In this document: positions 6,146 through 62,616 of the stretch, piece after piece
Position numbering within the stretch: position 1 is the first letter of the stretch
Layout of the letters: every line of letters starts with the position of its first letter
Source: an uncultured Nitrososphaerota archaeon
Lineage (GTDB): Archaea > Thermoproteota > Nitrososphaeria > Nitrososphaerales > CADDZS01
Assembly: GCA_963799845.1 (NCBI GenBank)
Contig: CAWCYI010000004.1
Coordinates: forward strand, 1,728,001-1,792,000
DNA: 64,000 bases
Direction of reading: 5' to 3'
The notes under the pieces: model-generated
Told to the model about the DNA's origin: nothing
Database searches by the model: none
The model's input: only the letters and a program-made list of their open reading frames with translations
Position numbers and translations under genes: made by a program

Positions 6146-7283
6146 TTGTCGACCAAATCTGAATTTGATAATTCAAAGATTCAATCATTTGCCTCCCGCA
6201 TGATATCTATCCTGAATGATGGTTTCCTGTGTTTGATGATAAGCATTGGTCACAGAACTGGATTGTTCGATGTCATGGCAAGCTTGCCGCCGATGTCAAG
6301 CGAGCAGATTGCCAACAAGGCGAAGCTCGACGAGCGATATGTTCGCGAATGGTTAGCCTGCATGGTCACGGGGCGAATTGTAGAATACGAGTTCCATTCA
6401 GGAACGTATAAGCTTCCTCCTGAGCACGCTGCCAGTCTCACTCGTACCGCGGGGCTTGCTAATCTCGGATCCTCCTCACAGCTTGTTTCTTTTTTGGGAA
6501 ACGTTGAGGATCAAGTTATCGAGTGTTTCCGCGAGGGTGGTGGAGTTCCCTACACAGCATATCCCAAATTGCAGACATACATGGCAGAATCAAGCGTCCG
6601 AATTCATGACGCGAAGTTGATTGATGTAATCCTCCCACTGATTCCGGGGTGCACTGATCGCCTAAAAGAAGGAGTCGACGTTCTGGATGTTGGATGTGGT
6701 TCGGGACACGCCATTAATCTAATGGCTCGAGCTTTCCCAAAAAGTAGTTTCGTTGGTTACGATATGTCAAGAGAGGGAATAGCAGCAGGAAGGTCGGAAG
6801 CCAAACGGCTTGGACTATCGAACGCCAAATTCGCAATTAAGGACATTGCAACATTGAATGAGTTCAGATCCTTTGATTTGATTACAGCTTTCGATTCAAT
6901 TCACGACCAGGCAAGGCCAACTAAGATCTTGAAAGCAATTTCCAAAGCTCTTCGAACGGACGGCGTCTTTTTCATGGTAGAAAACAAATCTTCCAGCAAC
7001 CTCGAAGAAAACCTTGACCATCCCGTTGCACCAATGCAGTACGCCGCCTCGACTATGCACTGCATGACTGTCTCATTCAGCTTATGGTGGAGAAGGACTC
7101 GGAAACATGTGGGGCGAGCAGATGGCACGCAAGAAACTGAAACGAGCGGGATTCAACTCCATTGACGTTAGGCAAGTTGAAGGCGATATTTTGCATAACT
7201 ATTTCGTAGCCTCAAAGAGGCGAACTTCGCCACGTTTCGACGAGATTCTGATGACGACTGTCAATCGTTCTCCCATAACCTAG
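6146..7283 (+). CDS. SAM-dependent methyltransferase with N-terminal winged HTH (Rv2258c-like); +1 frameshift at ~7078
   Basis: ERYVREWL, LDVGCGSG and FDSIHD motifs. The conserved tail AYGGEGLGNMWGEQ continues in another frame from 7080 to TAG at 7281-7283. Confidence 0.85.
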
Positions 7284-7423
7284 CTACCAGGTACCGAATG
7301 AAGCCCAACAGTGAAAAAATGACTAATCAATCAAACCCAGACTAAGAGCTCGTCCTCCTCCAAACTGTAAAAGAAGGCTGACCGTTTGTTGGTTATCATT
7401 TTGGAAGACTCTGTAATTTCTGA

Positions 7424-9103
7424 CTATCGTCCCGGAGACTCTAGTCCAGACTTTGGGATTTCCGTTGAAATGGTAGAAGAATCCTGAGTGAGTTCCGGAG
7501 GTCGCTCCGTTCCGGATTCATTTATTCCGCCGGTTGCGGTCGGATTTCCTTTGGGAAGCCGTCCTTTTAGAAACAATGCGAAGACCAGTGCTACGACAAG
7601 TAACACTACCATCACGACGAAAACTTGGTCGTACGATTGTACCAGAGATACTTCTAGTGAGCTGAGATAGCTACCGCACAAAGGAATTTGCGGCGTTGGT
7701 GACAGACAAGAGACGTTGGGCAACGGATCGAGTACAGCGAACCGGGTGGCTTGCAGTGATGCGAGTACCGACAATCCGACTGCGCCGCCTAAGGACTGAA
7801 GAAATTGGATCATCCCTCCAGCTTCGCCGACGTCCGCGGATCTTACCTGATTCTGTGCAGCCAAAAGAAACACCGGGAAAGTCAAGCCGATCCCGAACCC
7901 GAGAGGGAGCAATGGCAAAATTATTCCGCCTACAGGGATCACATCGAAAATGAACTTCCAAAGTGGAGTCGTTGCTGATAGGTTGGTCAGCCCAGCCATT
8001 CCGACGAGCCCGATGATCATGCCGATTATTGTGACAGTTCTGTACGAGAGCCGAGTGAGTAGCTGACCTCCAAGAGCCGCTCCTATCACAAGAGGTATGA
8101 CGAGGAAGTAGAGGATGTCCCGAACGGTCGCTGAAGAATTGGAGCCCGGTGCGAGTACGATTCCGACCACGAGCGAGAGAAAAGTCGCCACGGGGAAGAA
8201 GACCATACCTATGAAGAAAGTAGATCCGCCTCCCGCCCACATGACGCGATTTTTCAAAAGGCTGACCGGAACGATTGGATTTTCTGCACGAAGTTCCCAG
8301 ATCACAAAAACCACGATAAGCGCCGACCCGAGCCCGAGCAACCCAACTACTCGCGAGTCGGTCCACGCCCAACCACTGTCTGCAATGCCGTACAGTGGAT
8401 ACATGATGGAGGCCACCCATCCAACAAGAAGACACGTGCCTATGGCGTCAAATTTCCGTGTAAATTCAGGACGCAGGGGTCCAAGTGTAGCAAGGATGAT
8501 CGCAAACCCGGCGATCCCAATCGGGATATTCACATAGAACACCCAACGCCAAGTGGTATACTGCACAATTGCGCTGCCGATCAATGGCCCTGCCACCACC
8601 GCAATGCCGAAAACCCCCGACAGGGCTCCAATCACCCGGGCCCTAGTCTTGGGGGGAAACACGACCGCGACGATAGCAATTCCTACAGGAAAGAAACCAC
8701 CGCTGCCGAAACCTTGGATGGCCCGGAAGAAGATAAGCTCCGTAAGATTCTGGCTCAGACCTGCAAGGACGGATCCCACCATAAACACTGCCAAGCTCCC
8801 GAGGAAGACATTTCGGCGGCTCCAAAGATCCGAGAGCTTGGCAAAGATCGGGATCGCTGCAGTGGTCGCGATAACATAGGCGCTGATTATGAAAGTACCG
8901 CTGTCGGGGCTATGAAACTGCGTTAAGATGATGGGCAGTGCTGTCAGGACGACAAATTCATCCAACGCACCCATCAAGAGAGCAAGAAGGATCCCCACGG
9001 TGATTAACAGCTCAGTTCTCGGAGAGGGTGCCGTTTGGGACACCCCCGTTGAGGGAGATGCCACCGAATTTTCAGAAGACGAAACTTTCAAAACGTCCGT
9101 CAA
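7424..9103 (-). CDS. MFS drug:H+ antiporter (DHA2, 14-TM)
   Basis: LSDLWSRR, FRAIQGFG, GPLIG and WRWVFYVNIPIG motifs. Confidence 0.9.
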   Translation of the reverse strand: MTDVLKVSSSENSVASPSTGVSQTAPSPRTELLITVGILLALLMGALDEFVVLTALPIILTQFHSPDSGTFIISAYVIATTAAIPIFAKLSDLWSRRNVFLGSLAVFMVGSVLAGLSQNLTELIFFRAIQGFGSGGFFPVGIAIVAVVFPPKTRARVIGALSGVFGIAVVAGPLIGSAIVQYTTWRWVFYVNIPIGIAGFAIILATLGPLRPEFTRKFDAIGTCLLVGWVASIMYPLYGIADSGWAWTDSRVVGLLGLGSALIVVFVIWELRAENPIVPVSLLKNRVMWAGGGSTFFIGMVFFPVATFLSLVVGIVLAPGSNSSATVRDILYFLVIPLVIGAALGGQLLTRLSYRTVTIIGMIIGLVGMAGLTNLSATTPLWKFIFDVIPVGGIILPLLPLGFGIGLTFPVFLLAAQNQVRSADVGEAGGMIQFLQSLGGAVGLSVLASLQATRFAVLDPLPNVSCLSPTPQIPLCGSYLSSLEVSLVQSYDQVFVVMVVLLVVALVFALFLKGRLPKGNPTATGGINESGTERPPELTQDSSTISTEIPKSGLESPGR

Positions 9104-9299
9104 GTATACGGGCTCTCTTCGATTTTCCGTTCTAATAATTACGATTCGAAATGTCCTGGGTAACTTAGATCTTTACTCGGACATTGGAAAGAAGCAGGTG
9201 AGTATTGAATGCCTTAACTCGTCTCATGGAACCTTCGGAGATTTCATTTAGTTTTGCGACGTCGAGCATGACAATATAGTACATCCAATATATAACACA

Positions 9300-9315
9300 C
9301 GATATAACTATATCG
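9300..9315. promoter_or_regulatory. Putative operator, perfect 7-2-7 inverted repeat
   Basis: CGATATA-AC-TATATCG in the AT-rich region about 200 bp upstream of the MFS gene. Confidence 0.4.
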
Positions 9316-17259: not shown

Positions 17260-17265
17260 AACTGG

Positions 17266-45326: not shown

Positions 45327-45345
45327 CTTTTTTCATCCCCTTGGT

Positions 45346-45855: not shown

Positions 45856-46021
45856 TTTGTCCCACTCCCGTCTCCCGGACACTCTGATATTTGGTAAATC
45901 GTTGTATTTATGGGACGATATGATCATCAATTTTGATAATAATCACTTGTTCAAATAGGAATCCAGATCCATTTGCCAAATCCACAACACCTTTTGTTGG
46001 CTTACACGAACTTCTATACGC

Positions 46022-47251: not shown

Positions 47252-47257
47252 GGTGCT

Positions 47258-48303: not shown

Positions 48304-48412
48304 GAAGATTCGGATTGAGGCTGCCTAGATTAATGAATCGGGGACGATCCTTTTTTCCGCCACTGCAACTGGTTGCTGCAGAGTCAGCGCACCGGACTGG
48401 TTTAATTGCGGG

Positions 48413-49348
48413 CTATAGTTTCCCCAGTACTTCCCTTGCAAACTTCTCGGAGTAGACTTTGGTCTTTTCCAGATTCTCGCGCAAAAAGCTGAGGGCGAGA
48501 AAAGAAACTCCAAGGTTTTCAAATTCCCTAACGTCTGCGACAATTTGTCGAGAGTTGCCGGCAAATAAGTTCCCTTTATCTGGATGATCGTTCAATTCAA
48601 AATTCTGTGCAAGGTACCCTATCCTGACGTCGTCTGGATTCCTACCCGTCTTCTTTACCTGCTGCTTGAGCCGTGCGATAGCTTCGGCCATTTGCGAGGA
48701 ATTTGATAGTAGAAACCTCGGGTTGCTGTCGATCGGAAACCAACCATCTCCAAGCTCGGCCGCCCGCCTGACTGCCCTCGGGCTTTCACCGCCGACCCAA
48801 ACTGGTGGATGCGGCTTCTGGACGACCTTCGGCGAAAAGTGGACATTGGAGAATTGAAAGTACTCACCGCTGAAGCTGGGATTTTTCTCGGACCAGATCA
48901 CTTTGAGAATCCGCAGGTATTCGTCCATGATCTTACCTCTTTCTTCGTACGGGATATGGAGAAGGTCGAACTCATCCTTCATCCAACCCACGCCGACTCC
49001 GACGTCCAGCCTCCCACCGGAAAGATAGTCCACGGTTGCGAGGGTGTTTGCCATGGCGAGCGGGTTCCGGTAGGGGATAACTGCGATACCGGTCATCAGA
49101 CGGATTTTTTCTGTTTTTGCCGCAACGAAGGAAAGTGTCGTTGATTGATCAAGGTCTTCGGTTGTATCAGTATACTCGCCTGAGGTCGAGTACGGGTACG
49201 TCGTGTTGATCTTGTTTGGCATTACGATGTGGTCGGAGGGTTCTACCAGCGTATCGAAGCCGAGGCTTTCGGCGTGCTCTGCAAGCTTGGTAAGGTTGTC
49301 AGGTTTTGACAGTTCACCGTCGTGGGGGAGACAGAATCCGAATTTCAA
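48413..49348 (-). CDS. LLM-class F420-dependent oxidoreductase (Rv2161c-like)
   Basis: SDHIVMP, DYLSGGRL..GVGVGW, PPVWVGG and RRAAELGDGW motifs. Confidence 0.9.
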   Translation of the reverse strand: MKFGFCLPHDGELSKPDNLTKLAEHAESLGFDTLVEPSDHIVMPNKINTTYPYSTSGEYTDTTEDLDQSTTLSFVAAKTEKIRLMTGIAVIPYRNPLAMANTLATVDYLSGGRLDVGVGVGWMKDEFDLLHIPYEERGKIMDEYLRILKVIWSEKNPSFSGEYFQFSNVHFSPKVVQKPHPPVWVGGESPRAVRRAAELGDGWFPIDSNPRFLLSNSSQMAEAIARLKQQVKKTGRNPDDVRIGYLAQNFELNDHPDKGNLFAGNSRQIVADVREFENLGVSFLALSFLRENLEKTKVYSEKFAREVLGKL

Positions 49349-50349
49349 GATCTATCCCCTACTTTAGGCGAGATCATCGACTTGAGCCCGATGTAGTCTT
49401 CTCTTTTGGCCAGCCCCTTGAGCGGTTCTCGTTTCAAATATCGTTCGATGTTTCGCACCGCATTCTTGACCGCAAGCTCGTGTGACTCTGGCACGGCATC
49501 CGCATTGTGAGGGGAGCCCAAAAAATTTGGGAGATCGAGGAAGGGGTAGTTCTGAGCGAATGGCGCGCCGGGAGCGGGATATTTCCACCAGACGTCAATC
49601 CCGGCCTTGAAAGAAGGATTCGCTCGAAGATGATCATAGAGTGCTTTCTCGTTTATGATCTTACCGCGACCCACGTTGACCAAAATACAGTTTGCTTTAG
49701 TTAAGCGGAGATTTGATTCGTTAATCAAATTCATAGTACCGACAGTCAGTGGCATCGCAATCACCACAATGTCAGACTTCGACAGGAGCTCGTTAAGACC
49801 GCCGAGGCTATTCGTCCTGTCAAAGAATTCGACTTTTCTTCCCGACGAGTTGATTCCAATGGTGCCTATACCAAACGCCTTTGCAAGTCGAGCTACGGCC
49901 TGTCCAATTCCTCCAGTCCCAATAATTCCAATAGTCTTGCCCTTCAGAAAGATTCCTTGACCCTGATCGAAGACTGATTTTCTAAGCTCCTCTTCTCGAA
50001 GGATGATATTCCTCGCAAGACAGAGGATCATTCCAAAAACGTGTTCAGCAATTTGCTCGGAAAAGGCACCGACGTTTCCGCATACCAGGACTTCTCGTGG
50101 AATCACTTCGAAATCGATTACGTCGACTCCGGCAGATAGCGTCTGTACTAAACGAAGATTCTTCATCCGTTCAAACTTGATCTCGTTTAACCACTTTGTG
50201 TCGGAGACGAGGAGGATCTCTACATTCGAGGCTACTTCGTCTGGAAGCTCGTCACCCTCGACTATTTCGATTGTGTTGCTGGAAGACAGTTGCAGTCTCG
50301 AACGCAACGTGCTTGAGAGCTTGGTTGTGGAAAAAATTATTCTTGTCAA
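49345..50349 (-). CDS. D-2-hydroxyacid dehydrogenase family protein
   Basis: SAGVD, GTGGIG, VNVGRG, DVWW and SPHNA motifs. Confidence 0.9.
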   Translation of the reverse strand: MTRIIFSTTKLSSTLRSRLQLSSSNTIEIVEGDELPDEVASNVEILLVSDTKWLNEIKFERMKNLRLVQTLSAGVDVIDFEVIPREVLVCGNVGAFSEQIAEHVFGMILCLARNIILREEELRKSVFDQGQGIFLKGKTIGIIGTGGIGQAVARLAKAFGIGTIGINSSGRKVEFFDRTNSLGGLNELLSKSDIVVIAMPLTVGTMNLINESNLRLTKANCILVNVGRGKIINEKALYDHLRANPSFKAGIDVWWKYPAPGAPFAQNYPFLDLPNFLGSPHNADAVPESHELAVKNAVRNIERYLKREPLKGLAKREDYIGLKSMISPKVGDRS

Positions 50350-50739
50350 TCGCCAACTGAATTCTCAAATAGGCTTGGTCTTTTAATTGGTTCGATGAAA
50401 CAGTGACTTTTCAGGTCTGCAGGTACAAAACTACCTGAAATAATCTTCGTTAGTAGTAGTGTAACTGTGAGATTGTGAAAACAGACTTCTTTGCTTACAA
50501 TAGCATTAGAAATAACCAGAAGAGCTAGAAACGAGCTCTCCGGTACGCAGGATTGCGCCCCCGTAGAACAGGGCGAAAATGGCATAATAAATCAATGATC
50601 GTGAAACAAATGGCCAAGAGAGCTGGAGGGTACACGAGGAGGTCGTGGACCTGCCGGAAATTCGATGGCGAAGATCTCGCAGGGTATCTTGGAGCCGGGC
50701 ACACTGTAACCTGCTTCAGAGTTTGGAAAATGATTTTTC

Positions 50740-50949
50740 TTACTGCTTTCCAGCGGCTTCAAAAACAACTTGCCTTCCTTCAGATTCTGAGATTCTGACG
50801 TAGCACCGCTTTACATATTTCACGCCTGACTTCTGTGTCCGCCGGGGGTGCCGGAATACACGATAACGAAGTGTGCCGTTCTCATTTCGCATGATTTGAA
50901 CCACGCTCTCCCGTGCAATTTTGCCGCATCTTGGGCATACTAGATCCAA
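50740..50949 (-). CDS. Small basic zinc-binding protein (CxxC...H...C)
   Basis: CPRCGK...YRVFRH...KRCYV. Confidence 0.6.
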   Translation of the reverse strand: MDLVCPRCGKIARESVVQIMRNENGTLRYRVFRHPRRTQKSGVKYVKRCYVRISESEGRQVVFEAAGKQ

Positions 50950-51111
50950 TTAGGTCAAATCTTCTCCAATGAGGTGGGACAGAGTTGTCGTCAGAAGACA
51001 GGGATTGGTGTAATAAAAACTCCTGAAGCCCTATTGGCTGGATAAATTTCAAAACCCTGACGTCAAGACTATATTCTTATGTTGCAACTTTTTTTCGTTA
51101 ATTAGCGCCGA

Positions 51112-52242
51112 ATGAAGATTTCCAGGACATTAGACGAAGCTGACCTAGAGGATCTGGTGATTGGTGCCACAATCCTATCATCCGGAGGAGGAGGCTCGGT
51201 TGAGAACGCGTTTAGGATAATAAGGAAAATATCGGAAAAAGGGCTTGCACCGCACCTTGTTGACCCTGCCGGATTACCCGCAAAGGCTCTCGTTTTTGCT
51301 CCCGGCGATGTTGGTGGAGGGATAACGTCGGAAGAAGAAAAAAGGTTTGAGAGGGTCTACAAAACGAAGATCCCGATAAAGTGGAAACGGTGGCCGTGGG
51401 ATAAATGGTCGTCCGCATCAATAGCGGAACTTGCCAAATATCTGGGCCGGGAACCTGACGCGTTTCTGGCGATGGAAGCAGGTCCCGGTTCTTTTCTCAG
51501 CGTGATCTTCGAAGCAGCCGAAAGCGGAAAGCCGACGATCGATGGTGATACTGTCGGACGCGCGGTTCCTGAGATGACGATGTCGAAACTTTTTCTCAAT
51601 AATACGAGAGTTCTCGCCTCGGCTTCGACATCGCACTTTGGAGATATTATCATCTTGAAACAGATCCCCAATTTCAGGAGAATGGAAGATATCGTCAGGT
51701 CGTTCGCGAGTGCCTCGGGAGGAGGTGTGGGACTAGTTTCTGCGTTCGAAGGATCTACTGTCAGCAGAGGGACGATACCAAATTCAATTTCGCGATGCAT
51801 CAAGCTCGGTAGAGAGGTACGGACTTCTCCGATGAAGGACCTGTTGAAGACTGTCCTAGAAGAGACACGTGGAAAGATCCTATTTGTCGGGAAAGTGGAT
51901 AAAGTGGAATCCGAGCCCAGGCTCGGATATCTATTCGGGTCTTATTTGATGACCGGCACCGGCGAATATCGAGGGGCCAAGCTCAAAATCTGGTTCAAGA
52001 ACGAGAACCACGTAGCTTGGAAGAACGGGAGGCCGGTTGCCACATCTCCTGACACGATTACAATTTTTGATCCTGAGAAAAGACAGGGAATGTGGAATTG
52101 GGACGTGGTTCCAAGAGACAGGGAGTTAATTGTACTCGGAATACCTGCGGATAATATTTGGAAAACAAAAAGGGGTCTCGAAGTTCTGGGCCCCAGAGCT
52201 TTCGGTTTTGATATTGAGTACAGGCCGGTTCGCGCCGGCTAA
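51112..52242 (+). CDS. DUF917 family protein (thiohydantoin desulfurase-like), paralogue 1
   Basis: GATILSSGGGG, DGDTVGRAVPE, WFKNEN, PD.I and GPRAFG motifs. Confidence 0.9.
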   Translation: MKISRTLDEADLEDLVIGATILSSGGGGSVENAFRIIRKISEKGLAPHLVDPAGLPAKALVFAPGDVGGGITSEEEKRFERVYKTKIPIKWKRWPWDKWSSASIAELAKYLGREPDAFLAMEAGPGSFLSVIFEAAESGKPTIDGDTVGRAVPEMTMSKLFLNNTRVLASASTSHFGDIIILKQIPNFRRMEDIVRSFASASGGGVGLVSAFEGSTVSRGTIPNSISRCIKLGREVRTSPMKDLLKTVLEETRGKILFVGKVDKVESEPRLGYLFGSYLMTGTGEYRGAKLKIWFKNENHVAWKNGRPVATSPDTITIFDPEKRQGMWNWDVVPRDRELIVLGIPADNIWKTKRGLEVLGPRAFGFDIEYRPVRAG

Positions 52243-52997
52243 TAGCGCAGGTCCTTCATGAAATCTTCTATCGCTTGTGTGATGTTCTTCGCGGCTCCCT
52301 CTATCATGTTCTTTCCCCATTCCCTGTTTGCCTTGGTCGCATCTCCGAGAATTCCGGATGAAGTAACATCCTTGAACGTCCTGAATGTGGACGTGTAGAA
52401 GCCCTCCGACATCTTGATCGCTTCAGAAGCCTGGGGCATCTCCCGTTTCGCCCTTTCGATTTTGACCTGATCCGGTCTCAGATAGAGAGTCCAGGAAGTC
52501 TCCTGCGCGTTAGCGTGAAAGCCATCGTCGAAACTGATTCCCTTGCCGAGCTCCTTCGGGATAAAGTCCCACCAGTTGAAACCGATAACCTTCTTTGGAG
52601 AGAGCTCGTTTCTCGATTCGGCCGTGGCTATTGACAGCGCTGCCGTATTGCCTCCGTGGCCGTTGATGAAGATTACAGGATCAAAACCGTGGGAGGTGAG
52701 AGACCGCGCATAGTCCTTGACTACTGCGATGAACGTCTGTGCCTGCAGTGTAATGGTTCCGGGAAAAGGCATGTGGTGTGCGGACACGCCGGGTCGGAGT
52801 GGTGGCGCTACGACGCACCCCAGCTGCATTGCTACCAAGATGGACACCTCAAGAGGTGCAACGACATCTGAATAAAGTGGTAGATGTGGACCATGCTGCT
52901 CGATCGAACCGGTGGGTACTAGAATCGTCTTGGTCTGTTTCAGCAATTCCTGAACATCAGGCCATGTCATTTCTTCCAGAAAGATTGAATTTGGCAA
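52239..52997 (-). CDS. Creatininase/creatinine amidohydrolase family protein
   Basis: GSIEQHGPHLP..SD, NGHGGN, HA...ETS and SGILGD motifs; start approximate. Confidence 0.92.
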   Translation of the reverse strand: MPNSIFLEEMTWPDVQELLKQTKTILVPTGSIEQHGPHLPLYSDVVAPLEVSILVAMQLGCVVAPPLRPGVSAHHMPFPGTITLQAQTFIAVVKDYARSLTSHGFDPVIFINGHGGNTAALSIATAESRNELSPKKVIGFNWWDFIPKELGKGISFDDGFHANAQETSWTLYLRPDQVKIERAKREMPQASEAIKMSEGFYTSTFRTFKDVTSSGILGDATKANREWGKNMIEGAAKNITQAIEDFMKDLRY

Positions 52998-53222
52998 TTT
53001 TATTGTGCTACCTTTGGGTTCTAAGATCAGAGTGCACTCTATTAAATTTCTGGAAAGACATTCCCCTTTATAGGAGAGCAAGGTTTCTTACTCTCAGAAT
53101 TTAAGCCTGAATTTCTCGAGGAAAATTTGTATGACCAGTCTGCAAATGCACAAGGCGTGTCCAAAAAGTCACGATATCACTCAATGATTATATTTTTCGG
53201 AGAATCTCAGGTATAGAGCACG

Positions 53223-54281
53223 TTGAGTAAGAGAGGCTACACCGACTACCATGAGAGGATACCGCCGGGATGGCGTATAGCTCCAGTCGATCGCTGGCCG
53301 ATCAACAATCACGATTCGGGTCAAACGCCAAATTTCGATGTAGGAAAGTGGAGGTTCAGGACGTATGGTGAAGTAGAAAACCCACTCGACATAACGTATG
53401 AAGAATTCCGGAATCTTCCGCATATTACAAAGACGCTTGACCATCACTGCATCGATGGTTGGAGTTATCTCGGTCAGGTGTGGAACGGCGTCGACATTTC
53501 CGTCATAAAGGAAAAGACAAAAGTCCGGAAAAGTGCTTGCTACATTTTGGTTGAGAGTAGCCAAGGTCTGAGCCAGACGTTTCCAATAGGCCAGGATCTC
53601 TTGCTTGCGGATGGCCAGAATGGGTCAGTCCTGCCGAGACCCGCCGGGTATCCGCTGCGGATAGTGGCTCCAGGAGAATTCGGAATGAAAAGCACGAAGT
53701 GGGTTGAGAAGATCAAGTTTTGCAGCGAGCGGGAAGTCGATGCACTGGATAGGATGGTCATGCAGAACGGCCTGTACGAATTGTACTCCGAGAAATTGAG
53801 TGACTTCAATCCATGGACTGTCGATAATAAAGAGAGAAAGAAATTTCTCTGCAAGAATTTCGCCGCTGGAGTCGAGGCGGTGAGGTTTAAGAAAAAGCAG
53901 GAATTTCTCGACAGTAACGATGCGATCTCTTCAGAAACTTTTGCACTTTGCAAGCTAGGCGACCTAAAGGAGAATGCAGGTTCAAAGTTTGTAATTAACG
54001 GAAACGAGATTCTTGTGGTAAAGTCAGGGAACTTGATCTACGGGGTAGAGCCAATTTGTCCTCACCTTGGTTCAGATTTGTCTCGCGGAAGGGTCAACTG
54101 CGATGCCAAAACCGTCAAATGTCCCTTGCATGGCGCGGTGTTTGATATTGCTAGTGGGACATGCCTAAGCGGCAGCTATGGATGCGACGGCGATACTTTT
54201 CCTCCAATCCGAACTTACCGGATAAAGGTAGAATCTGATACCGTATTCCTTGAAAGAAATCAGGAATGGGGAACGATTTAG
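53223..54281 (+). CDS. Molybdopterin-dependent oxidoreductase domain (sulfite oxidase/MsrP-like) fused to a C-terminal Rieske ferredoxin
   Basis: HCIDGWS (Mo-ligating Cys) and GYPLRIVAPGEFGMKSTKWV, followed by CPH...CPLHG. Confidence 0.85.
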   Translation: MSKRGYTDYHERIPPGWRIAPVDRWPINNHDSGQTPNFDVGKWRFRTYGEVENPLDITYEEFRNLPHITKTLDHHCIDGWSYLGQVWNGVDISVIKEKTKVRKSACYILVESSQGLSQTFPIGQDLLLADGQNGSVLPRPAGYPLRIVAPGEFGMKSTKWVEKIKFCSEREVDALDRMVMQNGLYELYSEKLSDFNPWTVDNKERKKFLCKNFAAGVEAVRFKKKQEFLDSNDAISSETFALCKLGDLKENAGSKFVINGNEILVVKSGNLIYGVEPICPHLGSDLSRGRVNCDAKTVKCPLHGAVFDIASGTCLSGSYGCDGDTFPPIRTYRIKVESDTVFLERNQEWGTI

Positions 54282-55352
54282 GACAGGTTGAACGCGCTGG
54301 GACTGACAAGCTTTATGAGCTTCCTCAGACAGCCACTTCTCCGCGACCGGGATCTTGAAGACCTTGCAACGATTGCCGTACCTCAACTGATCTGTCGTTA
54401 TTGGAAGAAGAGATTCTAGATCGTGGATTGAAATTATCTGGGGCGTGGCGACGATCGTCTCTTCATTCTGCTCGAGTATGCGCTTGGCAATCAGAAACTC
54501 GTTCTGGAACAAGATCTTGAGTTTCTGGTCGCGATAGTGATCAATCCCTTCTATCAAAACATGGCCGATCGCAAAGCCCCTGAGATTGAATCTCTTCAGG
54601 TCAGTCACCTTCCCAACGAAGATTTCCTTCGCCCCGCATGAGTCGATCAGCGATTGCTCTGCTTCCTTGTTTTTCATCCCTTCGAGAAGCGATTCCCCGA
54701 TGTTTAGGGCGAGGCTGAGCGTGTTGGGGATTGCACTTTTTCTGTATCCAGCGCCATTCATTGGATGGCTGGCTACGCATCCTCGTCCACCCATCGCGAC
54801 GGTTATGGATCTGGCGAGCTTTTCTGTCCATGAATCGGAAAGACCGTTTATGATGACCTCGTTACCCTTCTCGTCGGAAATGCACATCGGGCTTGCTCTC
54901 TGGCCGTAAGCGTTGAAAGTTGTCATCTGAAGCTCGGGAAAAGCTCTTCCTTCTCCATCGCCATCGATTACGGGCAGCTTCACGTAGACCGCATTTATGA
55001 AGGGGACCAGCGAGTTGATCCCTCCGATTTCTGCGGGAGAAAGGTGCGTCGCATTTCTCCCGATGATCTTTTCAAGACTTCTGGTCGACCTCGCATACTC
55101 GGTTCCCGCGGGAATCTTTTCAACGCCGATCGTGGGCGATCCCATGCCGGCAATGCAGAAAGAAAAATGTGAATCATCGATTTCATCGAAAGGCGTAACC
55201 TCCAGCTCCTCGACTTGGAATCTTTCCATCGCTGATTTTAGAAGAAGCGCGCCAAGGTACGGATTTCCGCCCCCTCCTGACCCGAGGACAGCGCTGCCAA
55301 GCGCGAGAGAGTCAATGTTTGATTTTCTGAATTTCCTGAGCTCAGATCTCAT
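54278..55352 (-). CDS. DUF917 family protein, paralogue 2; +1 frameshift at ~54313
   Basis: GSAVLGSGGGG, EIGGINS, DGDGEGRAFPELQM and FQNE motifs. The corrected end HKLVSPSAFNLS* stops at 54278, which removes a 117-bp antisense overlap. Confidence 0.9.
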
Positions 55353-55469
55353 GCAGTAGTCATGATTCCTTCAGACTAAGTCTACCTTTGAAGGACGCCT
55401 GACCATAAGAAAGAAGAAAGTGTATCCTTCCTTATGATTGGGAGGATAGATTGAGGTGTCCTTCGGAGC

Positions 55470-57188
55470 CTATGATTTGTAATACACGTTGTACAGACCG
55501 TACTCAAAGCTGGGACCCAGGGAATAGGTGTACCCGCCGACGTGCGGGGACAACGCCACGAAGTACGGGGCAATGTCCAGGTATACATCCACGTAATTCT
55601 GAGTGATGTCTGTCTGGAGCTGGTAGAAGTACTGCTGTCTCTGGGCGTCGTTTATTGTTGTCCTCTCCTGTGTAAGAAGGCTATCTACAGTTGAGTTGCT
55701 GAACCACTCCATGGAAATCCACGTGCCGTGAGCTGAAGATGAATACGGGGAGTAGAGCAACGAATCAACATCTGGATAGAAAGGCAGGAATTCGATGATT
55801 GTAAAGTCAGGCGTCGAAGTAACATTCGCTGCAATCTGAGTGACGGTAAGGAACGTTTGGGGCTGGATGTTTACCGTGACGCCGATCTGCCCCAGATCCT
55901 TCTGGAATTCCTCGGCTATCTGTTGTTCCTGAATGCTGCCCTGGACATACACTATAGTAAGAGCTTGAGCACCCGGGTTGACTCCTGAACTAGTAATCGC
56001 CGCTTTGGCTGCGCTAATGTTTTGTGAAAGTGGCTTTACAGCCGAGTTATAGTCCTTGTAGGATTGCGGAACAGGACCGGCGAGCTGGACACCGCCAGGG
56101 AAAATATAGGGCAGTGACGAGTAATTGAAAGCTAGCGCGACTGCCTTTCTGAAAAGGGTGCTATTCAGCGGGGCCTTCTGGGTATTCATCTTGATCATGT
56201 AGAAGGTCGCGGTCGAATAGTTCATGAATTGCCAGCCCAAAGACGAGTGTAGAGACTGGTATGTCGAGAGCTGAAGATAATCACTCACCCAGTCCAACGA
56301 GCCTTCTTTGGCAAGAGACAATACGGTGGCATCGGAAGTCACAATCGTGTAAGTGACTGTATTGTACGGGTGCGGGTTACTGGACCATCCCAGCCAATAT
56401 CCGGAGAATCTATCGATGGTAAGGGAAACTCCAGGTTGGTAGTTTCCGAGCATGTAAGGCCCAGATCCTGCTTCGTGGTTGTTCAGCCAGCCAGCTCCCC
56501 AGTCACCCATCGGGTTGCTCGATGAGGAATTTGCCAGGTGCTGCATTACGGTTTGCTGGTCTACGATGAAGAAAAGAGAAAGCGTGCTCACAAACGGGGC
56601 GTAGACTGTTTCGGTTTGCATCTGGACCGCCGAAGAATTCAGAGCTTTGATTCCGGAAGAGTTCAATATTCCTATCCAGAATGAAGCAGAACCCTCGCCG
56701 ATTGCAAGCATCCGCTGCATCGAGAAAACCACGTCGCTCGCATTTAGGATGTTCCCGCTGTGGAACTTGATGCCCTGATTAAGAATGAAAGTATACGTCT
56801 TGCCGTCGGATGCTGCGGTCCAGCTGCTGGCGACGTGCGGAATGATCGTCGAATTCGGAGCCTGCGTTACGAGGTTATCATACATGTTGTACATGGCAAG
56901 ATCTTGGGTGTAATCATTTCCAACCGCTGGGTCGATGTTTCCAAAGTCCTGCTGAACCTGCACATTCAGCGTAGGAGTCGATGCGTTTGATGCGGTAGAT
57001 GAGGTCGTAGAAGTGGTTGAAACCACAGGTGAACTTGAAGTGGTAATCGTTGACGAGGTTGAAGTCGTAGATGTGGTCGTTGATTTGGTAGATAACGCGA
57101 GGATCCCAGCTCCAGCGATGATTATTATTATGACGACGACTACGACAATCAGAGCGACTCTGCTAATGGCATGTCTAAAATTCTTCAA
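55470..57188 (-). CDS. Peptide/nickel-type ABC substrate-binding protein (family 5)
   Basis: N-terminal TM helix and Thr/Ser linker; DGKTYTF.L..GIKFHSG and GSGPY motifs. Confidence 0.92.
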   Translation of the reverse strand: MKNFRHAISRVALIVVVVVIIIIIAGAGILALSTKSTTTSTTSTSSTITTSSSPVVSTTSTTSSTASNASTPTLNVQVQQDFGNIDPAVGNDYTQDLAMYNMYDNLVTQAPNSTIIPHVASSWTAASDGKTYTFILNQGIKFHSGNILNASDVVFSMQRMLAIGEGSASFWIGILNSSGIKALNSSAVQMQTETVYAPFVSTLSLFFIVDQQTVMQHLANSSSSNPMGDWGAGWLNNHEAGSGPYMLGNYQPGVSLTIDRFSGYWLGWSSNPHPYNTVTYTIVTSDATVLSLAKEGSLDWVSDYLQLSTYQSLHSSLGWQFMNYSTATFYMIKMNTQKAPLNSTLFRKAVALAFNYSSLPYIFPGGVQLAGPVPQSYKDYNSAVKPLSQNISAAKAAITSSGVNPGAQALTIVYVQGSIQEQQIAEEFQKDLGQIGVTVNIQPQTFLTVTQIAANVTSTPDFTIIEFLPFYPDVDSLLYSPYSSSAHGTWISMEWFSNSTVDSLLTQERTTINDAQRQQYFYQLQTDITQNYVDVYLDIAPYFVALSPHVGGYTYSLGPSFEYGLYNVYYKS

Positions 57189-57306
57189 AGTTGAAACTTT
57201 GAAGGTGGTAAGCGACTTAGCTCTTAAGCTTAGCGGAATTCGTTAATCGGAAAAAAACGAAATTCGCACGCTTAAATATTATCCAGTGGTAGTTGCCTCC
57301 CATTCA

Positions 57307-58323
57307 ATGCGGTTTTGGGAGTACGTTTTTCGCAGAGCAATGCTCGCGCTCTTGACTCTCGTAGGACTTTCTGTTGTCATTTTTTATTTGTCCAGAGTCC
57401 TCCCCGCTGATCCGGGCAGACTTGCGCTGGGGCCGTATGCGAGCGAGCAACAGGTGAAATTATACGATCACCAGCTCGGGCTTGACAAGCCGATCTACGA
57501 ACAATATTTTCTCTATCTCTGGAACTTTATTCACGGACAGTGGGGACAATCGATAATCACCCACAACAATGTGCTTGCTGACGTTGAATACTATTTTCCA
57601 TCAACCTTTGAACTGATCACAATTTCGATAATTCTCACAGCGCTCATTGGGATACCTCTGGGAATAGTCGCGGCGAGCCGCCGCGGAAAGGGATCGTCAG
57701 CAGTGATTAGATTACTCTGGATAATCGGAATTGCGATACCTCCGTTTGCGACCGGAATCGCTTTACAGTTGATCTTCGGCTATTATCTCGACCTCCTGCC
57801 GGTCGCGACCCAGATCAGCGGAGCTCTGCCGACGAGGATCACCGGAATGGTTTTGGTCGACAGCCTGCTCACACTTAACTGGCCAGCGTTCGTGAGCTCT
57901 TCCGCACATTTGATCCTTCCCGAGATCGCACTTTCCCTTACCGGCATCGGGCAGATCGCCCAGTTGACCTACGCTGGAGTTCTTGACGAAACTGGTGAGG
58001 ATTACTACACCGCCCTAATCGCATTCGGAGCAAAGTCTAGATCGCTCAACTTCAAGTATGCAATGAGATCCGCTCTTGTTCCTGTTTTGACAGTTCTTGG
58101 TCTGCTCTACGCTTCTCTGATAGCTTACGCGTTTCTGGTCGAAGATGTGTTCACCTGGGGCGGACTGTCCCAGTACGCGGTGACCGCCATGCAGACAAAG
58201 GATTTCAACGCGATTGTCGCGACCGTCCTCATAGTTGGCTTCTTCTACATCGTGCTTAATTTCCTCGTGGATATTGCCCTCGGATATGTTGATCCCAGAA
58301 TGAGATTGGATGGAGCAGAATGA
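57307..58323 (+). CDS. ABC permease (DppB/OppB-like)
   Basis: GLDKPIYEQY, FPSTFEL, VEDVFTWGG and VDPRMR motifs. Confidence 0.92.
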   Translation: MRFWEYVFRRAMLALLTLVGLSVVIFYLSRVLPADPGRLALGPYASEQQVKLYDHQLGLDKPIYEQYFLYLWNFIHGQWGQSIITHNNVLADVEYYFPSTFELITISIILTALIGIPLGIVAASRRGKGSSAVIRLLWIIGIAIPPFATGIALQLIFGYYLDLLPVATQISGALPTRITGMVLVDSLLTLNWPAFVSSSAHLILPEIALSLTGIGQIAQLTYAGVLDETGEDYYTALIAFGAKSRSLNFKYAMRSALVPVLTVLGLLYASLIAYAFLVEDVFTWGGLSQYAVTAMQTKDFNAIVATVLIVGFFYIVLNFLVDIALGYVDPRMRLDGAE

Positions 58324-59207
58324 CCGAGACATTAACAAAACCGCCAAAAGGTGAGAGGTTCAAGGAACTCACAAACCAGCTTTACCGTTTGACGTATGAT
58401 CCGCTCGCGATAGGCGGCCTGGTAATCTTGGCAGGGATCATCTTCGTCGCGATCTTTGCTCCGTTCCTTACCCCATATGCAAATCAGGTGGGGCCTTACA
58501 CGAACTTTGCGGCGGAGTATATGCATCCGTCGTGGGCTCACTGGTTCGGGACGGACAATGTTGGAAAGGATATTTTCACCCAGGTTATCTTTGGTTTCAG
58601 AATTTCGCTTTCAATTGCGTTGGTAGTCCTCGTGGCGAGCGCCCCTGTTGGAATCGTGCTCGGCCTGGTCGCGGGGTACTACGAAGGATGGATAGGAGCG
58701 TTAATCCAAAGGGTCACCGAGATATTTCTGTCGCTGCCCGCCCTAATTTTCGCACTCGTAATCGCGGCCATCCTCGGTCCAAACCTTCAGGACGTAATAA
58801 TCGCCCTGATCAGCCTCTGGTGGAACTGGTATGCGAGGATAATGTATACCGTGACAAAATCACTCAAAAATCGCCCTTACGTGGAAGCAGCCAAAGTGCA
58901 GGGAGCCGGGCCCTTGCGAATAATGTTCAGGGAGATCCTTCCGAATGCGACATCGACCCTGACCGCGAAGATGATGCTCGATCTGGGCTTCATCATACTG
59001 ATAGAATCGGCCATGGGGTTCCTCGGGATTGGGGCACAGCCGCCAACGCCTGATCTTGGAGTGATGGTGGCCTCTGGGCTTCCATACCTCGCGACGTACT
59101 GGTGGATTTCGCTTTTCCCGAGTCTTGCTCTGACTGTCCTCGTCCTCTCCTTCAACTTAATCGGAATCGGGATAAGGGATCTCTTTGACGTGAAGGTGGT
59201 CGCCTAG
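58320..59207 (+). CDS. ABC permease (DppC/OppC-like)
   Basis: HWFGTDNVGKD, YVEAAK..GA and EILPN motifs. Confidence 0.92.
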   Translation: MTETLTKPPKGERFKELTNQLYRLTYDPLAIGGLVILAGIIFVAIFAPFLTPYANQVGPYTNFAAEYMHPSWAHWFGTDNVGKDIFTQVIFGFRISLSIALVVLVASAPVGIVLGLVAGYYEGWIGALIQRVTEIFLSLPALIFALVIAAILGPNLQDVIIALISLWWNWYARIMYTVTKSLKNRPYVEAAKVQGAGPLRIMFREILPNATSTLTAKMMLDLGFIILIESAMGFLGIGAQPPTPDLGVMVASGLPYLATYWWISLFPSLALTVLVLSFNLIGIGIRDLFDVKVVA

Positions 59208-60185
59208 ATGTCGCTGCTTGAAATTGACAAGCTGAATCTCAGCGTTACCGCCAATCGGATCAAGGTACCGATTTTAAGGAATGTAAGTATCAATGTGGAG
59301 AAGGCCGAGGTCGTAGCGATCGTGGGAGAAACCGGGAGTGGGAAGACGCTCACGGCGAAAGCGGTAATGGGCATTCTCCCCAAGAACTCCATCATCGATT
59401 CTGGGCATGCATTCTATGAGGGAGTCGACATACTTACTTCCTCATCTGAAGCCCGCAAGGCTCGAAAAAAGATCGCTATGGTATTCCAGAACCCGATGTC
59501 ATCCCTGAATCAACTTTTCAAGATAAAGGATCAGATGAGCGACGTTTTGAACTGGTCCGGCGTCGACAAATCGCAGATGACAAAGGAGACACGGATCGAC
59601 AAAATTATTTCGACTCTGGAACAGGTGAAATTAGGGCAAAACGCACTTGACATGTATCCCTTCCAGCTGAGCGGGGGGATGAGACAAAGGGTGATGATAG
59701 CGATGTCACTCTTGCGCGAGCCAGATCTCCTGATAGCAGATGAACCAACAACTGCGCTCGACGTTACAACGCAGAGGGAGATACTGAACCTGCTCCAGGA
59801 GCTCGCTGGCAAGAACAAGATGAGCCTCTTGCTCATCACGCACAATTTGGGAATCGCTTTTGAGACTGCCGAGCGGACCTACGTATTCTACGCCGGAAGG
59901 GTCGTGGAAGAGGGCACAACCTCATCCTTGTTTCGGAACCCTCTGCATCCATACACCCGAGGCCTCATTGATTCGATCCCGTCTCTGGACAGGTCCAGGG
60001 CGATGGAGGGAATTCGAGGAGAGATTTCTCAGGACGACAGGAGCACCGAATCGTGCTGCTTCAACAGGAGATGTCCAATCGCGATTGAGATCTGCACGAA
60101 GGAAGAGCCGCAGCTGGAAGAACTGGAGTCGCGACACCGAGTGGCGTGCTTTGTGGCGAGTCAGAGGGCGAGGCGAACGAAGTGA
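59208..60185 (+). CDS. ABC ATPase (DppD/OppD-like)
   Basis: GETGSGKT, LSGGMRQR, DEPTTALD and HPYT motifs, plus a C-terminal Cys cluster. Confidence 0.93.
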   Translation: MSLLEIDKLNLSVTANRIKVPILRNVSINVEKAEVVAIVGETGSGKTLTAKAVMGILPKNSIIDSGHAFYEGVDILTSSSEARKARKKIAMVFQNPMSSLNQLFKIKDQMSDVLNWSGVDKSQMTKETRIDKIISTLEQVKLGQNALDMYPFQLSGGMRQRVMIAMSLLREPDLLIADEPTTALDVTTQREILNLLQELAGKNKMSLLLITHNLGIAFETAERTYVFYAGRVVEEGTTSSLFRNPLHPYTRGLIDSIPSLDRSRAMEGIRGEISQDDRSTESCCFNRRCPIAIEICTKEEPQLEELESRHRVACFVASQRARRTK

Positions 60186-61139
60186 AACAAATTTTTGAAG
60201 TAGACCAGGTCTCCAAGACGTTTGAGCTTCGAACCGGCTTGACGCGAAAGAAGGTGGGAGAAGTTAGGGCAGTTGACAATGTCTCATTCAGTGTCGGTCG
60301 GGGAGAGACGCTCGGAATCATCGGCGAAACTGGATCTGGCAAGACGACGATAGCGAAGATGCTGTTGCTACTCGTTAGACCTGATTCGGGGAAGATACTC
60401 TTCGAGGATCGCGATATCTCCTCATTTTCCAAGTCAGAGGAGAAAGATTACAGGAAGAAGGTTCAAACCGTGTTCCAGGACCCGACTTCGTCTCTCAATC
60501 CGAGGCACAATGTGAAGACGATCATCGAATCTCCGCTCAAGATTCATCACGAGGAATTCAAGAAGCGAATCCCCGACCTGTTGAAACTCGTCAATCTAGA
60601 CGAATCTTACGAGTACAGATATCCGCATACACTGAGCGGGGGAGAGAAACAGCGCGTAGCTGATCGCCCGTGCCCTGGCTTTAAACCCTGAGGTTATCAT
60701 CCTGGACGAACCTACTTCCGCACTTGACGTATCCGTACAGGCAAAGATAATTGCTCTGTTGAAAAGCTTCAAAGAAAAGCTCGATATCACCTATCTCTTT
60801 ATCTCGCATGACCTGAGTCTCGTCGCGAACTTTTGCGATCGAACTCTGGTTGTTTACAACGGAAAAATGTGCGAGATGGGAAAAACTTCGGAGATTTTCA
60901 AAAATCCGATCCATCCGTACACCGAACTCTTGCTTTCTTCTGTCCCAGTCGTCAGCGAGTCGGAGGAAAACATGAAGCCGAAGGACGTGCCAATCCAAAC
61001 GAATTCAAGATCCGTCAGATACACAGACGGCTGCGTTTTTCGCGACAAGTGCTGGTTGAAGCAGAGCATCTGCGAGACGCGGGTGCCGGAGTTCAGGGAG
61101 GTTTCCCAGGATCACTGGGTCGCCTGCCACGTGAGGTGA
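60182..61139 (+). CDS. ABC ATPase (DppF/OppF-like); +1 frameshift at ~60662
   Basis: LSGGEKQRVA|IARALALNPEVIILDEPTSALD is restored by removing one base. Confidence 0.9.
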
Positions 61140-61145
61140 AATGCG

Positions 61146-61478
61146 ATGACTTCTGACGACGATGAAAACGGTGAACACAAATCGAGGTCTTCGATCGGAG
61201 CTTCGCGGTTCTTTGTCTGGTACGGAAATAGAAGGAGACGAGGGATGCTTGACGATGCAAGACTGTCGTTCAGGGATTATCTCGTGAAAATTGGATTAAT
61301 TTTTGCGTTCATGCTGCTCGACCTGATTTTCTTTCCTTCCTTGGTTCAGATTTTAATCCCGATCTCCACCGATTTCTACGTAGCGTGGGCGGCCGGCGGA
61401 TTGTTGCTGGTATTTGTCGAAAAAAAGATGCTCGACAGAATCTTGCCGCCGCGGAAAATACCTACGAGCAATCAGTGA
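61146..61478 (+). CDS. Hypothetical two-TM membrane protein
   Basis: In-operon ORF with two hydrophobic helices. Confidence 0.6.
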   Translation: MTSDDDENGEHKSRSSIGASRFFVWYGNRRRRGMLDDARLSFRDYLVKIGLIFAFMLLDLIFFPSLVQILIPISTDFYVAWAAGGLLLVFVEKKMLDRILPPRKIPTSNQ

Positions 61479-61537
61479 ATTAATTTCTCACGAGTGTTGG
61501 AAGATTTAATAGCTGAAAATCCGTTCGAGGCTAATTC

Positions 61538-62616
61538 ATGAAGATTACCGCGCAGGAAATCGAGGATATTGCCATTGGTGCCGCAGTCCTCGGAACCGGA
61601 GGTGGAGGAGATCCATTCATCGGGAAGCTGCTTGCGCTCGACGCAGTGGCAAGGTATGGTTCAGTTGAATTAATCCAGCCGGAAGAAGTACCAGACGAAG
61701 GGCTCGTGGTACCATCCGCGGGGATTGGAGCTCCCACTGTGTTGGTAGAGAAAATTCCGAACGGAGAAGAGGGGCTGGCTGCCCTCAGGATTCTCGAGGA
61801 CAAGATCCACAAAAAGCTGTCGCGATTACGCCGATTGAGCAGGGCGGACTGAACTCGGAAATCCCAATTTCTGTTGCGGCGAAGACCAGGCTCCCCCTGA
61901 CGGACTGCGACGGGATAGGAAGAGCCTTCCCCGAGCTCCAGATGTGCTCGTTCAGCCTCGACGGAATTCCTGCAAATCCAATGGTACTCGCCGACGAGAA
62001 AGGAAATGTGGTACTCCTTGAAACGATAGACAACTTGTGGACTGAGAGATTCGCACGAAGTACTGTTGTCCAGATGGGCGGATCTGCGCTCAGTGTTGCT
62101 TATCCTATGACGGGTGCGCAGCTGAAAAAATCGTGCATAAAGGGGACTGTTTCACTCTCGCTGAGGCTGGGCGAAGTGACCCGTTTTGCGAGAGAAAAGG
62201 GCGAAAATCCTCTCCACGACATTGCAAAGATACTCAGGAGCAAAATATTGTTCAAGGGAAAGTTGGTCGATATTTTCAGGAGGACGACGGGCGGTTTTGC
62301 AAGGGGCGAGGCACTCTTTCAGGGATTGGATGAATTTGACGGAGAATCCCTGAGGATCAAGTTCCAGAACGAGAACCTGATCGCCATGCGAAATGAGAAG
62401 AAGGTTGTAGCGACGGTACCGGACTTGATCTCTGTTCTCGATGTGGAGACAGGCATCGCGATCACAACTGAAGAGCTAAGATACGGAAATCGTGTCGTCA
62501 TCATAGGTTCGCCCTGCAACGAAAGATGGAGGACGCCCAAGGGCATCACCGTCGCGGGTCCGAGGTATTTCGGTTATGATGTTGACTATGTTCCCGTGGA
62601 GGAGCTGAGCGCTTAG
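61538..62616 (+). CDS. DUF917 family protein, paralogue 3; -1 frameshift at ~61815
   Basis: GAAVLGTGGGGDP, then (frame-corrected) EQGGLNS, DCDGIGRAFPELQM, FQNEN and GPRYFG. Confidence 0.9.

Follow-up and report, generated by a model that had tools for sequence, protein, structure and literature searches.

Single-base frameshifts at AGCT and GTAC motifs in a soil Nitrososphaerales assembly: probable long-read consensus errors at modified sites

The window analysed here is a stretch of 64,000 nucleotides (contig CAWCYI010000004.1, positions 1,728,001 to 1,792,000) from the genome of an uncultured soil archaeon that shares its GTDB order with Nitrosocaldus-like genomes. The window contains 307 AGCT sites, and no Rfam family was found in it. 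The amoA gene was found neither in the source genome nor in its family. The assembly (GCA_963799845.1) consists of 9 contigs totalling 4.6 Mb. Since these were obtained from a soil metagenome and include contigs of 2.14 and 1.75 Mb, the assembly was presumably built from native-DNA long reads, most likely Nanopore. Its completeness is 86.7%, which is low for 9 contigs and 4.6 Mb and is consistent with the presence of many broken marker genes.

A reading of the sequence alone had located 11 single-base frameshifts in the window. Each of them is borne out by at least one line of evidence: a split Pfam domain, a homologue or a short-read contig. AGCT (AGACT in the case of 22089) is present at all ten places where it had been noted, and the eleventh site, 23247, lies within GTACCC. 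For the sites 7079, 21598, 22089, 23247 and 40685, the break is supported by homology. In the 3'-end region of a SAM-methyltransferase-like gene on the plus strand (frames 6128–7165 and 7068–7283), residues 8–317 of the homologue P0003 match one frame and residues 317–362 match the next; together with the +1 frame geometry, this supports an insertion-type T[C]AGCT site at 7078–7082. The two-HTH regulator gene on the minus strand (about 21208–22133), for which 275 relatives were found, is broken twice in the window. P0123 matches the middle frame to residue ~180 and its residues 178–307 match the next frame from nucleotide ~21600, and the agreement of homologues with the middle frame ends at residue ~166, supporting an insertion-type T[C]AGCT site at 21598–21602 on the minus strand. 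The 191-residue fragment of this regulator had no homologues of 336–2000 residues, and the full protein would have ~305 residues. In addition, the homologues have 12–14 extra N-terminal residues relative to the main frame, and a 14-codon ATG piece in a shifted frame (22092–22133) corresponds to residues 1–14 of P0121. P0121 and the translation were compared by eye, the 16-residue N-terminal piece being too short for BLASTP. An insertion-type AG[A]CT site (plus-strand reading) is thus supported at 22089–22093, after codon 14 of the gene. In a VIT1-family gene on the plus strand (23008–23728), VIT1 positions 1–63 are followed by 65–214 in the next frame at an insertion-type GTAC[C] site (23244–23249). 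The ABC-2 permease gene (40366–41164, plus strand) has an insertion-type T[C]AGCT site at 40684–40688, as indicated by Pfam and by a paralogue: the match to the second half of the domain (ABC2_membrane 86–208) starts from the second residue of the downstream frame, and the split is paralogue-verified with its junction at 1768680 of contig C4. A list of short ORF overlaps across the window was too noisy to add sites in 1–42 kb.

Window positions 42000–61999 were compared with Logan contigs from four runs (X1–X4) of one soil study. These contigs drop rare variants, their samples may differ from the assembled one, and X2–X4 leave parts of the stretch uncovered. Loose contig ends carry what we take to be Nextera adapter sequence, and the runs were therefore read as short-read libraries. 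The contigs have no other letters than the window over pieces of 1.1–3.7 kb, but show nine clean one-base indels. Each indel was seen in all bridging contigs, from one to four runs, with the exception of X2 at 47197, which has a depth of 2.9 and does not show the difference. Outside the repeat at ~44,960–44,975, one substitution in the 20-kb stretch has the whole depth of the best-covering run behind it (45777 in X1), and the remaining listed differences each come from a lone contig of low depth in X2 or X3. A search for a tRNA in the region of high depth around 44,970 found none.

Six of the nine indels correspond to sites that had been proposed from the sequence (43429, 47200, 47561, 54309, 60658 and 61815). 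The other three (50485, 51068 and 61515) are additional, and the count of 11, each member of which is real, was therefore too low by at least three. In the flavodoxin-like gene on the minus strand (42994–43612), the extra C of T[C]AGCT (43428–43432) at 43428 is left out in X1, X2 and X3, and Flavodoxin_1 positions 1–39 lie in the upstream piece. In the 5'-end region of an Fe-ADH-like gene (46237 to about 47257, minus strand), whose Fe-ADH_2 match lacks the first ~70 positions, 47197 is left out in X1 and X3; the change, within 47194–47203, is the additional C of GTAC[C] at 47197/47198, with AGCT 2 nt away, and not at 47200. The luciferase-like monooxygenase gene (47258–48324, minus strand), with Bac_luciferase split into 20–241 and 271–314, lacks a T in the T-run after AGC at 47561–47568 (T5 in the window and T6 in the reads), and X1 and X2 have this T behind 47563. 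Two extra A bases in AG[A]CT are among the additional indels, both left out in X1 and X2: 50485 (50483–50487), which adjoins a dispersed-repeat copy at ~50497–50598, and 51068 (51066–51070), upstream of the ORF at 51112–52242. In the 3'-end region of an S-Me-THD-like gene (54165–55370, minus strand), where the S-Me-THD_C match ends at 174 of 190 (nucleotide ~54312), the indel is an extra G in [G]AGCT (54317–54321). This G, at 54317, is left out in X1, the only covering run, and belongs to the AGCT following the one at 54309 to which the break had been assigned. The two proposed placements 47200 and 54309 were off by a few bases.

In the oligopeptide-type ABC ATPase gene (60089–61139, plus strand), ABC_tran and oligo_HPY are in different frames; the extra G of AGCT[G] (60658–60662), which is T[C]AGCT on the other strand, is left out at 60662 in X1, X2, X3 and X4. 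The same form, AGCT[G], was found at 61511–61515 just upstream of the ATG at 61538, with 61515 left out in X1 and X4. Finally, a second S-Me-THD-like gene (61535–62616, plus strand), with S-Me-THD_N split into 1–91 and 87–157, lacks an A in the A-run leading into AGCT at 61811–61818 (A5 in the window and A6 in the reads), and X1 has this A behind 61810. Each of the in-gene indels defined by the reads restores a split Pfam domain. At the six compared sites, the frameshift is absent from the short-read DNA and the genes are intact, so that the proposal of artefactual indels in intact genes has direct support there from same-study contigs that are otherwise identical. The extra C on the 5' side of AGCT, proposed as one recurrent event, fits 7078, 21598–21602 (minus strand), 40684, 43428 and 60662 (other strand).

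Eight of the nine indels touch AGCT and the remaining one is GTAC[C]. Under a fixed rule by which 4.1% of the positions in the compared stretch touch AGCT, seven of the nine do so (binomial P = 6.5e-9), in agreement with the view that the clustering is not random; the eighth, 61810, is included if the A-run is counted. About 8 of the ~103 AGCT sites in this stretch (about 8%) are wrong, indicating that the flanking context must matter as well.

Frameshifts were counted by flanking tetramer across the genome using split genes. From 1733 same-strand overlapping long-ORF pairs, 436 had paralogue matches on both halves, and 161 of these were verified as one gene. AGCT occurs in the junction interval (median 24 nt) of 76 of the 161 verified genes versus 17.6 expected, and GTAC in 25 versus 10.7 expected. 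Among the 16 palindromic tetramers, only AGCT (4.3-fold) and GTAC (2.3-fold) are clearly enriched, and the other 14 range from 0.33-fold to 1.74-fold. GATC in particular is not enriched at the verified junctions (25 versus 23.4 expected). The insertion-type junctions (n = 118) contain T[C]AGCT in 42 cases (2.1 expected), AG[W]CT in 24 (5.4 expected) and GTAC[C] in 18 (3.5 expected), and the deletion-type junctions (n = 43) contain AAGCT or AGCTT in 19 (2.8 expected). In total, AGCT, AGWCT or GTAC is present in 108/161 verified intervals; the 53/161 junctions with none of the three point to further sources of error. Across all 1733 pairs before filtering, the AGCT enrichment is modest (~1.3-fold) for the insertion-type windows (267/887 versus 194 expected), and 200/846 deletion-type windows contain AGCT versus 192 expected. 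This is because true gene junctions dominate the unfiltered set, and the paralogue-verified set was used in its place.

The read-defined indels are absent from the short-read contigs and sit on AGCT or GTAC motifs, and the motif enrichment extends over the genome. We consider it likely that the frameshifts are not mutations but consensus errors of a long-read metagenome, most probably of native Nanopore reads, at modified AGCT and GTAC sites. AGCT would carry a modified base, probably N4-methylcytosine by analogy with other Nitrososphaerota, and GTAC a second modification. The altered signal may then put the base count of the basecaller or polisher off by one at a minority of the sites, giving the fixed forms T[C]AGCT, AG[A]CT, [G]AGCT and GTAC[C], and runs of A or T next to AGCT that are one base too short. 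The restriction of the enrichment to two palindromic tetramers has the shape expected of methyltransferase recognition sites.

Methylation of AGCT in Nitrososphaerota, noted in the sequence-only reading, is on record as m4C (PMC6329791, PMC8919816, PMC11033074). Specifically, a Nitrosoarchaeum MAG with an orphan methyltransferase showed 96% modification of AGCT as m4C, which is described as conserved in the group (PMC6329791), and AGCT was 82–91% modified in two Thaumarchaeota MAGs (PMC8919816). In a REBASE-derived table, AGCT m4C is entered for three Nitrososphaerota, and Nitrososphaera viennensis is among the archaea with GTAC enzymes (PMC11033074). PMC11033074 and PMC6329791 report GATC as m6A in relatives. 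GATC shows no junction enrichment here, an observation that was counted against modification as the cause.

The proposed host enzyme for AGCT, and perhaps GTAC, would be encoded outside the window. Matches to PF01555 (N4/N6; 12) and PF02086 (2) occur in the genome, none of them in the window, and PF00145 (C5 methyltransferase) has no match. Of the N4/N6-type candidates, none could be tied to AGCT. One candidate (G000:C4:1427535-1428520(-)) matches PF01555 at 2.1e-32 and has an ADPPF stretch (DPPF/Y motif) in the upstream frame. A PDB search with its intact ortholog in genome G008 (73% identical) gave CcrM and N4-cytosine methyltransferases as the closest solved relatives. No enzyme of known specificity was found among the best 80 of at least 583 relatives of the candidate in named genomes. 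The best-conserved candidate family is present in 36/80 other genomes of the order, and the spread of the candidate is patchy by family (8/9, 7/9, 6/7 and 5/7 in four, and 0/9 in each of three). Neither named relatives, PDB neighbours nor the spread in the order allowed a specificity for AGCT or GTAC to be assigned to a methyltransferase.

Long-read errors could also arise from the sequence context itself (TAGCT, AGCT, GTACC), if the caller or polisher were weak on these words with no base modification involved. We regard this as rather unlikely. To our knowledge, no general long-read caller weakness on unmodified AGCT or GTAC is known, which counts against it, and the literature matches listed on AGCT m4C and nanopore errors include no report of such a weakness. 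The fixed and context-dependent error forms, the small affected share of AGCT sites (about 8%) and the unaffected GATC, reported as methylated in relatives, speak for such a weakness. Against it stands that precisely two tetramers are affected, both of them palindromes of the methyltransferase-target kind, and that one of them, AGCT, is a documented m4C motif of the phylum (PMC6329791, PMC8919816, PMC11033074).

That the indels are real is very unlikely, whether as an AGCT mutational hotspot with many pseudogenes or as a difference between the assembled strain and the short-read strain. Another strain would show SNPs, but the contigs have no substitutions over kilobases and differ only in indels; the short-read version restores the conserved domains every time, and the intact form is shared by as many as four samples. 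Nine indels per 20 kb would, by our extrapolation, mean roughly 2,000 frameshifts in 4.6 Mb. The points in favour of real indels are that the short-read contigs might stem from samples other than that of the assembly, that Logan contigs drop rare variants, and that X2 has no difference at 47197. Programmed frameshifting, in which the ribosome shifts at AGCU-containing slippery sites, has a negligible probability: the one point in its favour is that a motif recurs where the frames break, and it is refuted for the six compared sites by DNA of the same population without the shifts. Furthermore, the shifts include +1 and −1 types and affect both strands, some indels are outside ORFs, and the affected genes are unrelated.

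The preferred explanation, consensus errors at modified motifs, resembles the case of Dcm CCWGG motifs, which accounted for about 70% of the Nanopore consensus errors under default models (Wick et al. 2019, PMC6591954). There, as proposed here, the errors concentrate on a short motif that the organism modifies, survive consensus and polishing, are absent from short-read data, and are taxon-specific, the caller being untrained on the modification. Unlike that case, the motifs here are AGCT and GTAC, and the modification is likely m4C rather than m5C (PMC6591954). The errors here are also one-base indels of fixed form; only indels were seen because errors were detected through frameshifts, and substitutions could be checked in the compared 20-kb stretch only. 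The AGCT motif and the class of archaea are shared with the M.NspBD3I, M.Nca01I and M.TarMY3I systems (PMC6329791, PMC8919816, PMC11033074). For these AGCT m4C systems of Nitrososphaerota, an orphan type II enzyme is reported to modify the motif almost completely. The present genome has several N4/N6 methyltransferase genes and no C5 match. The organisms described there are ammonia oxidisers from other families; in the family of the source genome, amoA was not found.

Consensus errors bound to methylation motifs are a known kind of sequencing artefact, and no new biology is shown. There is a small chance that the error signature is readable as a methylome, giving a first hint that this 4.6 Mb soil Nitrososphaerales lineage without a detected amoA modifies AGCT and GTAC. 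Fixed one-base insertions (T[C]AGCT, AG[A]CT, GTAC[C]) dominate to an unusual degree, and on this reading the modification might differ from plain m4C, or a pair of enzymes might target adjacent words. The error forms provide a free and testable prediction of the methylation motifs of the organism. Knowing them exactly also makes motif-aware correction possible, which matters for annotating the source genome. If the compared 20 kb with nine indels is typical, the 4.6-Mb assembly would by our extrapolation contain about 2,000 false indels, with many genes wrongly split or called pseudogenes and completeness (86.7%) underestimated. Through such assemblies, truncated proteins also reach public protein collections, and the homologue P0121 looks truncated in the same way.

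The frameshifts in the window are systematic consensus errors, at two palindromic tetramers (AGCT and GTAC), of what is probably a long-read assembly. A sequence-only reading had listed 11 single-base frameshifts. AGCT is present at each of the ten places where it had been named (22089 reading AGACT), and the eleventh site, 23247, lies within GTACCC. At most of the 11 sites, stop-to-stop open reading frames (ORFs) overlapped on the same strand in two different frames. Pfam matches divided one domain between two frames at four sites: VIT1 (1-63 and 65-214, in successive frames) at 23247, Bac_luciferase (20-241 and 271-314) at 47561, ABC_tran followed by oligo_HPY in different frames at 60658, and S-Me-THD_N (1-91 and 87-157) at 61815. 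Truncated matches started or stopped at 40685, 43429, 47200, 54309, and 22089. At 7079, residues 8-317 of the public homologue P0003 (363 aa) aligned with one frame and residues 317-362 with the next. At 21598, relatives of ~305 aa depart from the middle frame at residue ~166, and the homologue P0123 takes up the next frame at residue 178 and follows it through to its C-terminus. At 22089, residues 1-14 of P0121 correspond to a piece that begins with ATG, lies in the shifted frame, and stops two codons past the minus-strand AGTCT. Taken together, ORF geometry, Pfam matches, and homologue alignments show all 11 sites to be frameshifts in the assembled sequence, as had been claimed. P0121 (207 aa), a public protein homologous to the HTH regulator (71% identity), keeps the correct frame beyond the equivalent of 21598 and then ends in residues resembling the out-of-frame reading; it probably reflects a frameshift in another assembly.

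The stretch is present in four runs (X1-X4) of a single soil-metagenome study, and Logan contigs of these runs were compared with window positions 42000-61999. What we take to be Nextera adapter sequence is present at the loose ends of some contigs, and the libraries were therefore regarded as short-read. In X1, the run with the best coverage, long pieces of 1.1-3.7 kb had no letter differences apart from the indels, except for one piece with a single letter. The comparison yielded nine clean one-base indels. A base of the window is left out in the contigs at 43428 (X1, X2, and X3), 47197 (X1 and X3), 50485 and 51068 (both X1 and X2), 54317 (X1), 60662 (all four runs), and 61515 (X1 and X4), and the contigs have a T inserted behind 47563 (X1 and X2) and an A inserted behind 61810 (X1). 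At 47197, X2 did not show the difference at a depth of 2.9, where a contig-end effect is possible. A tenth, partial difference at 44972, inside a dispersed repeat, was excluded from the count. The compared stretch takes in six of the claimed sites (7079, 21598, 22089, 23247, and 40685 fall outside it), and all six recur among the nine indels. At these six sites, the genes are intact and the indels are artefacts. The earlier listing was right that its sites are real, while two of its placements required correction and at least three sites (50485, 51068, and 61515) had been overlooked.

The indels take a small number of forms, in which the inserted base is bracketed. Three are T[C]AGCT on either strand (43428, 60662, and 61515), two are AG[A]CT (50485 and 51068), one is [G]AGCT (54317), and one is GTAC[C] (47197, 2 nt away from an AGCT). 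The remaining two have lost a base from a run abutting AGCT: at 47563 the window has T5 instead of T6, and at 61810 it has A5 instead of A6. By a fixed rule, AGCT is touched by 7 of the 9 indels vs 4.1% of the positions in the stretch (P = 6.5e-9), and 61810 also touches it once its A-run is counted. AGCT occurs 101 times in 42000-61999, which puts the miscalled share at about 8 of 103 true sites. The same forms are found at 7079, 21598, and 40685 (T[C]AGCT), 22089 (AG[A]CT), and 23247 (GTAC[C]).

The source assembly (G000; 4.60 Mb, 9 contigs, 47-48% G+C, estimated completeness 86.7%), in which the window spans C4:1728001-1792000, contains 1733 cases where two long stop-to-stop ORFs overlap on the same strand in different frames. 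Among these unfiltered pairs, no 4-mer ranked above AGCT once words related to stop codons or ribosome-binding sites were set aside, but its enrichment was only 1.3x; AGCT was found in 267 of 887 insertion-type windows (194 expected) and 200 of 846 deletion-type windows (192 expected). Both halves of each pair were then searched by blastp against all 6565 genome ORFs of at least 120 aa. Non-self matches were obtained for both halves in 436 pairs, and 161 pairs matched one subject with consecutive coordinates, the paralogue alignments setting junction intervals with a median of 24 nt. The association with AGCT holds genome-wide in these verified junctions, which are spread over all nine contigs: AGCT, the top 4-mer, is in 76 of 161 intervals (17.6 expected) and GTAC in 25 (10.7 expected). 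AGCT, AGWCT, or GTAC is present in 108 of the 161 and none of them in 53. T[C]AGCT, [G]AGCT, AG[W]CT, and GTAC[C] were observed in 42, 27, 24, and 18 of the 118 insertion-type junctions (2.1, 8.0, 5.4, and 3.5 expected, respectively), and AAGCT/AGCTT in 19 of the 43 deletion-type junctions (2.8 expected). AGCT (4.3x) and GTAC (2.3x) are the only conspicuous words among the 16 palindromic tetramers, with GATC at 1.07x. GGCC was at 1.7x (16 vs 9.2 expected), which is too weak to call it a third motif.

Artefacts of this kind are already known, and their recognition here is of practical value for annotation only. It is established that consensus errors in Nanopore data track methylation motifs; one report placed ~70% of consensus errors within Dcm motifs under default models and found them removed by taxon-specific training (PMC6591954). 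AGCT was described as 96% m4C-modified in a Nitrosoarchaeum MAG and stated to be conserved across the group, the enzyme being an orphan 45.9% identical to M.Mma5219II (PMC6329791); for two Thaumarchaeota MAGs, modification levels of 82-91% were given (PMC8919816). A REBASE-derived table gives AGCT m4C for Nitrosoarchaeum BD3, Nitrosomarinus SPOT01, and strain MY3, and enzymes recognising GTAC for several archaea, those of Nitrososphaera viennensis being predictions (PMC11033074). Methylation is the likely cause of the errors at AGCT and GTAC. A context error, in which these words are miscalled without any base modification, would fit the fact that just ~8% of AGCT sites are affected, but it appears unlikely given that both motifs have the form of methyltransferase recognition sites, one of them being the known motif of the phylum. 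Real mutations or a strain difference are very improbable, since the contigs are otherwise identical to the window and their versions restore conserved domains. Programmed frameshifting is refuted, at the six compared sites, by the DNA itself in the short-read contigs and has practically no likelihood.

Profile searches of the source genome gave 12 matches to PF01555 (N4/N6 DNA methyltransferases) and two to PF02086 (Dam-like), every one outside the window, and no match to PF00145 (C5 methyltransferases). The PF01555 gene best conserved among relatives, G000:C4:1427535-1428520(-), also outside the window, is 73% identical to that of the comparison genome G008 and 43% to those of G019 and G015. 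Its family has a patchy spread across the order, with members found in 36 of 80 other genomes. A PDB search with the intact G008 ortholog gave CcrM and N4-cytosine methyltransferases as the closest solved relatives, and no characterised enzyme was present among the best 80 of at least 583 relatives from named genomes. The gene is itself split in the assembly, with the frame change at AG[A]CT, 10 nt after AGCT. The two Dam-like genes adjoin each other at G000:C5:11600-13529; their contig, 65 kb long and lower in G+C (46.4%), could represent a mobile element or a virus.

Archaeal amoA (PF12942) was not found in the 4.6-Mb source genome at its completeness of 86.7%, nor in three other genomes from its family (87-96% complete). 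It is present in G019, a Nitrosocaldus-like genome of the same order whose methyltransferase locus is 96% identical to Archaeon HR04 and 84-89% to Candidatus Nitrosocaldus. The family may be a large-genome lineage without ammonia oxidation, a reading tempered by the 86.7% completeness of the source genome.

The dispersed repeat, which looks MITE-like, has copies in the window at 44912-45040 and ~50497-50598. Its unit of ~100-125 nt occurs in at least 25 copies with 79-97% identity on contigs C1, C3, C4, and C6. The copy at 44912-45040 is intergenic; the word depth of X1 is raised at this place, where many of the contigs end. Away from the repeat, the sole clean substitution between window and short-read contigs is at 45777, which precedes an AGCT by 5 nt; the window has C there, and both X1 and X3 have T.
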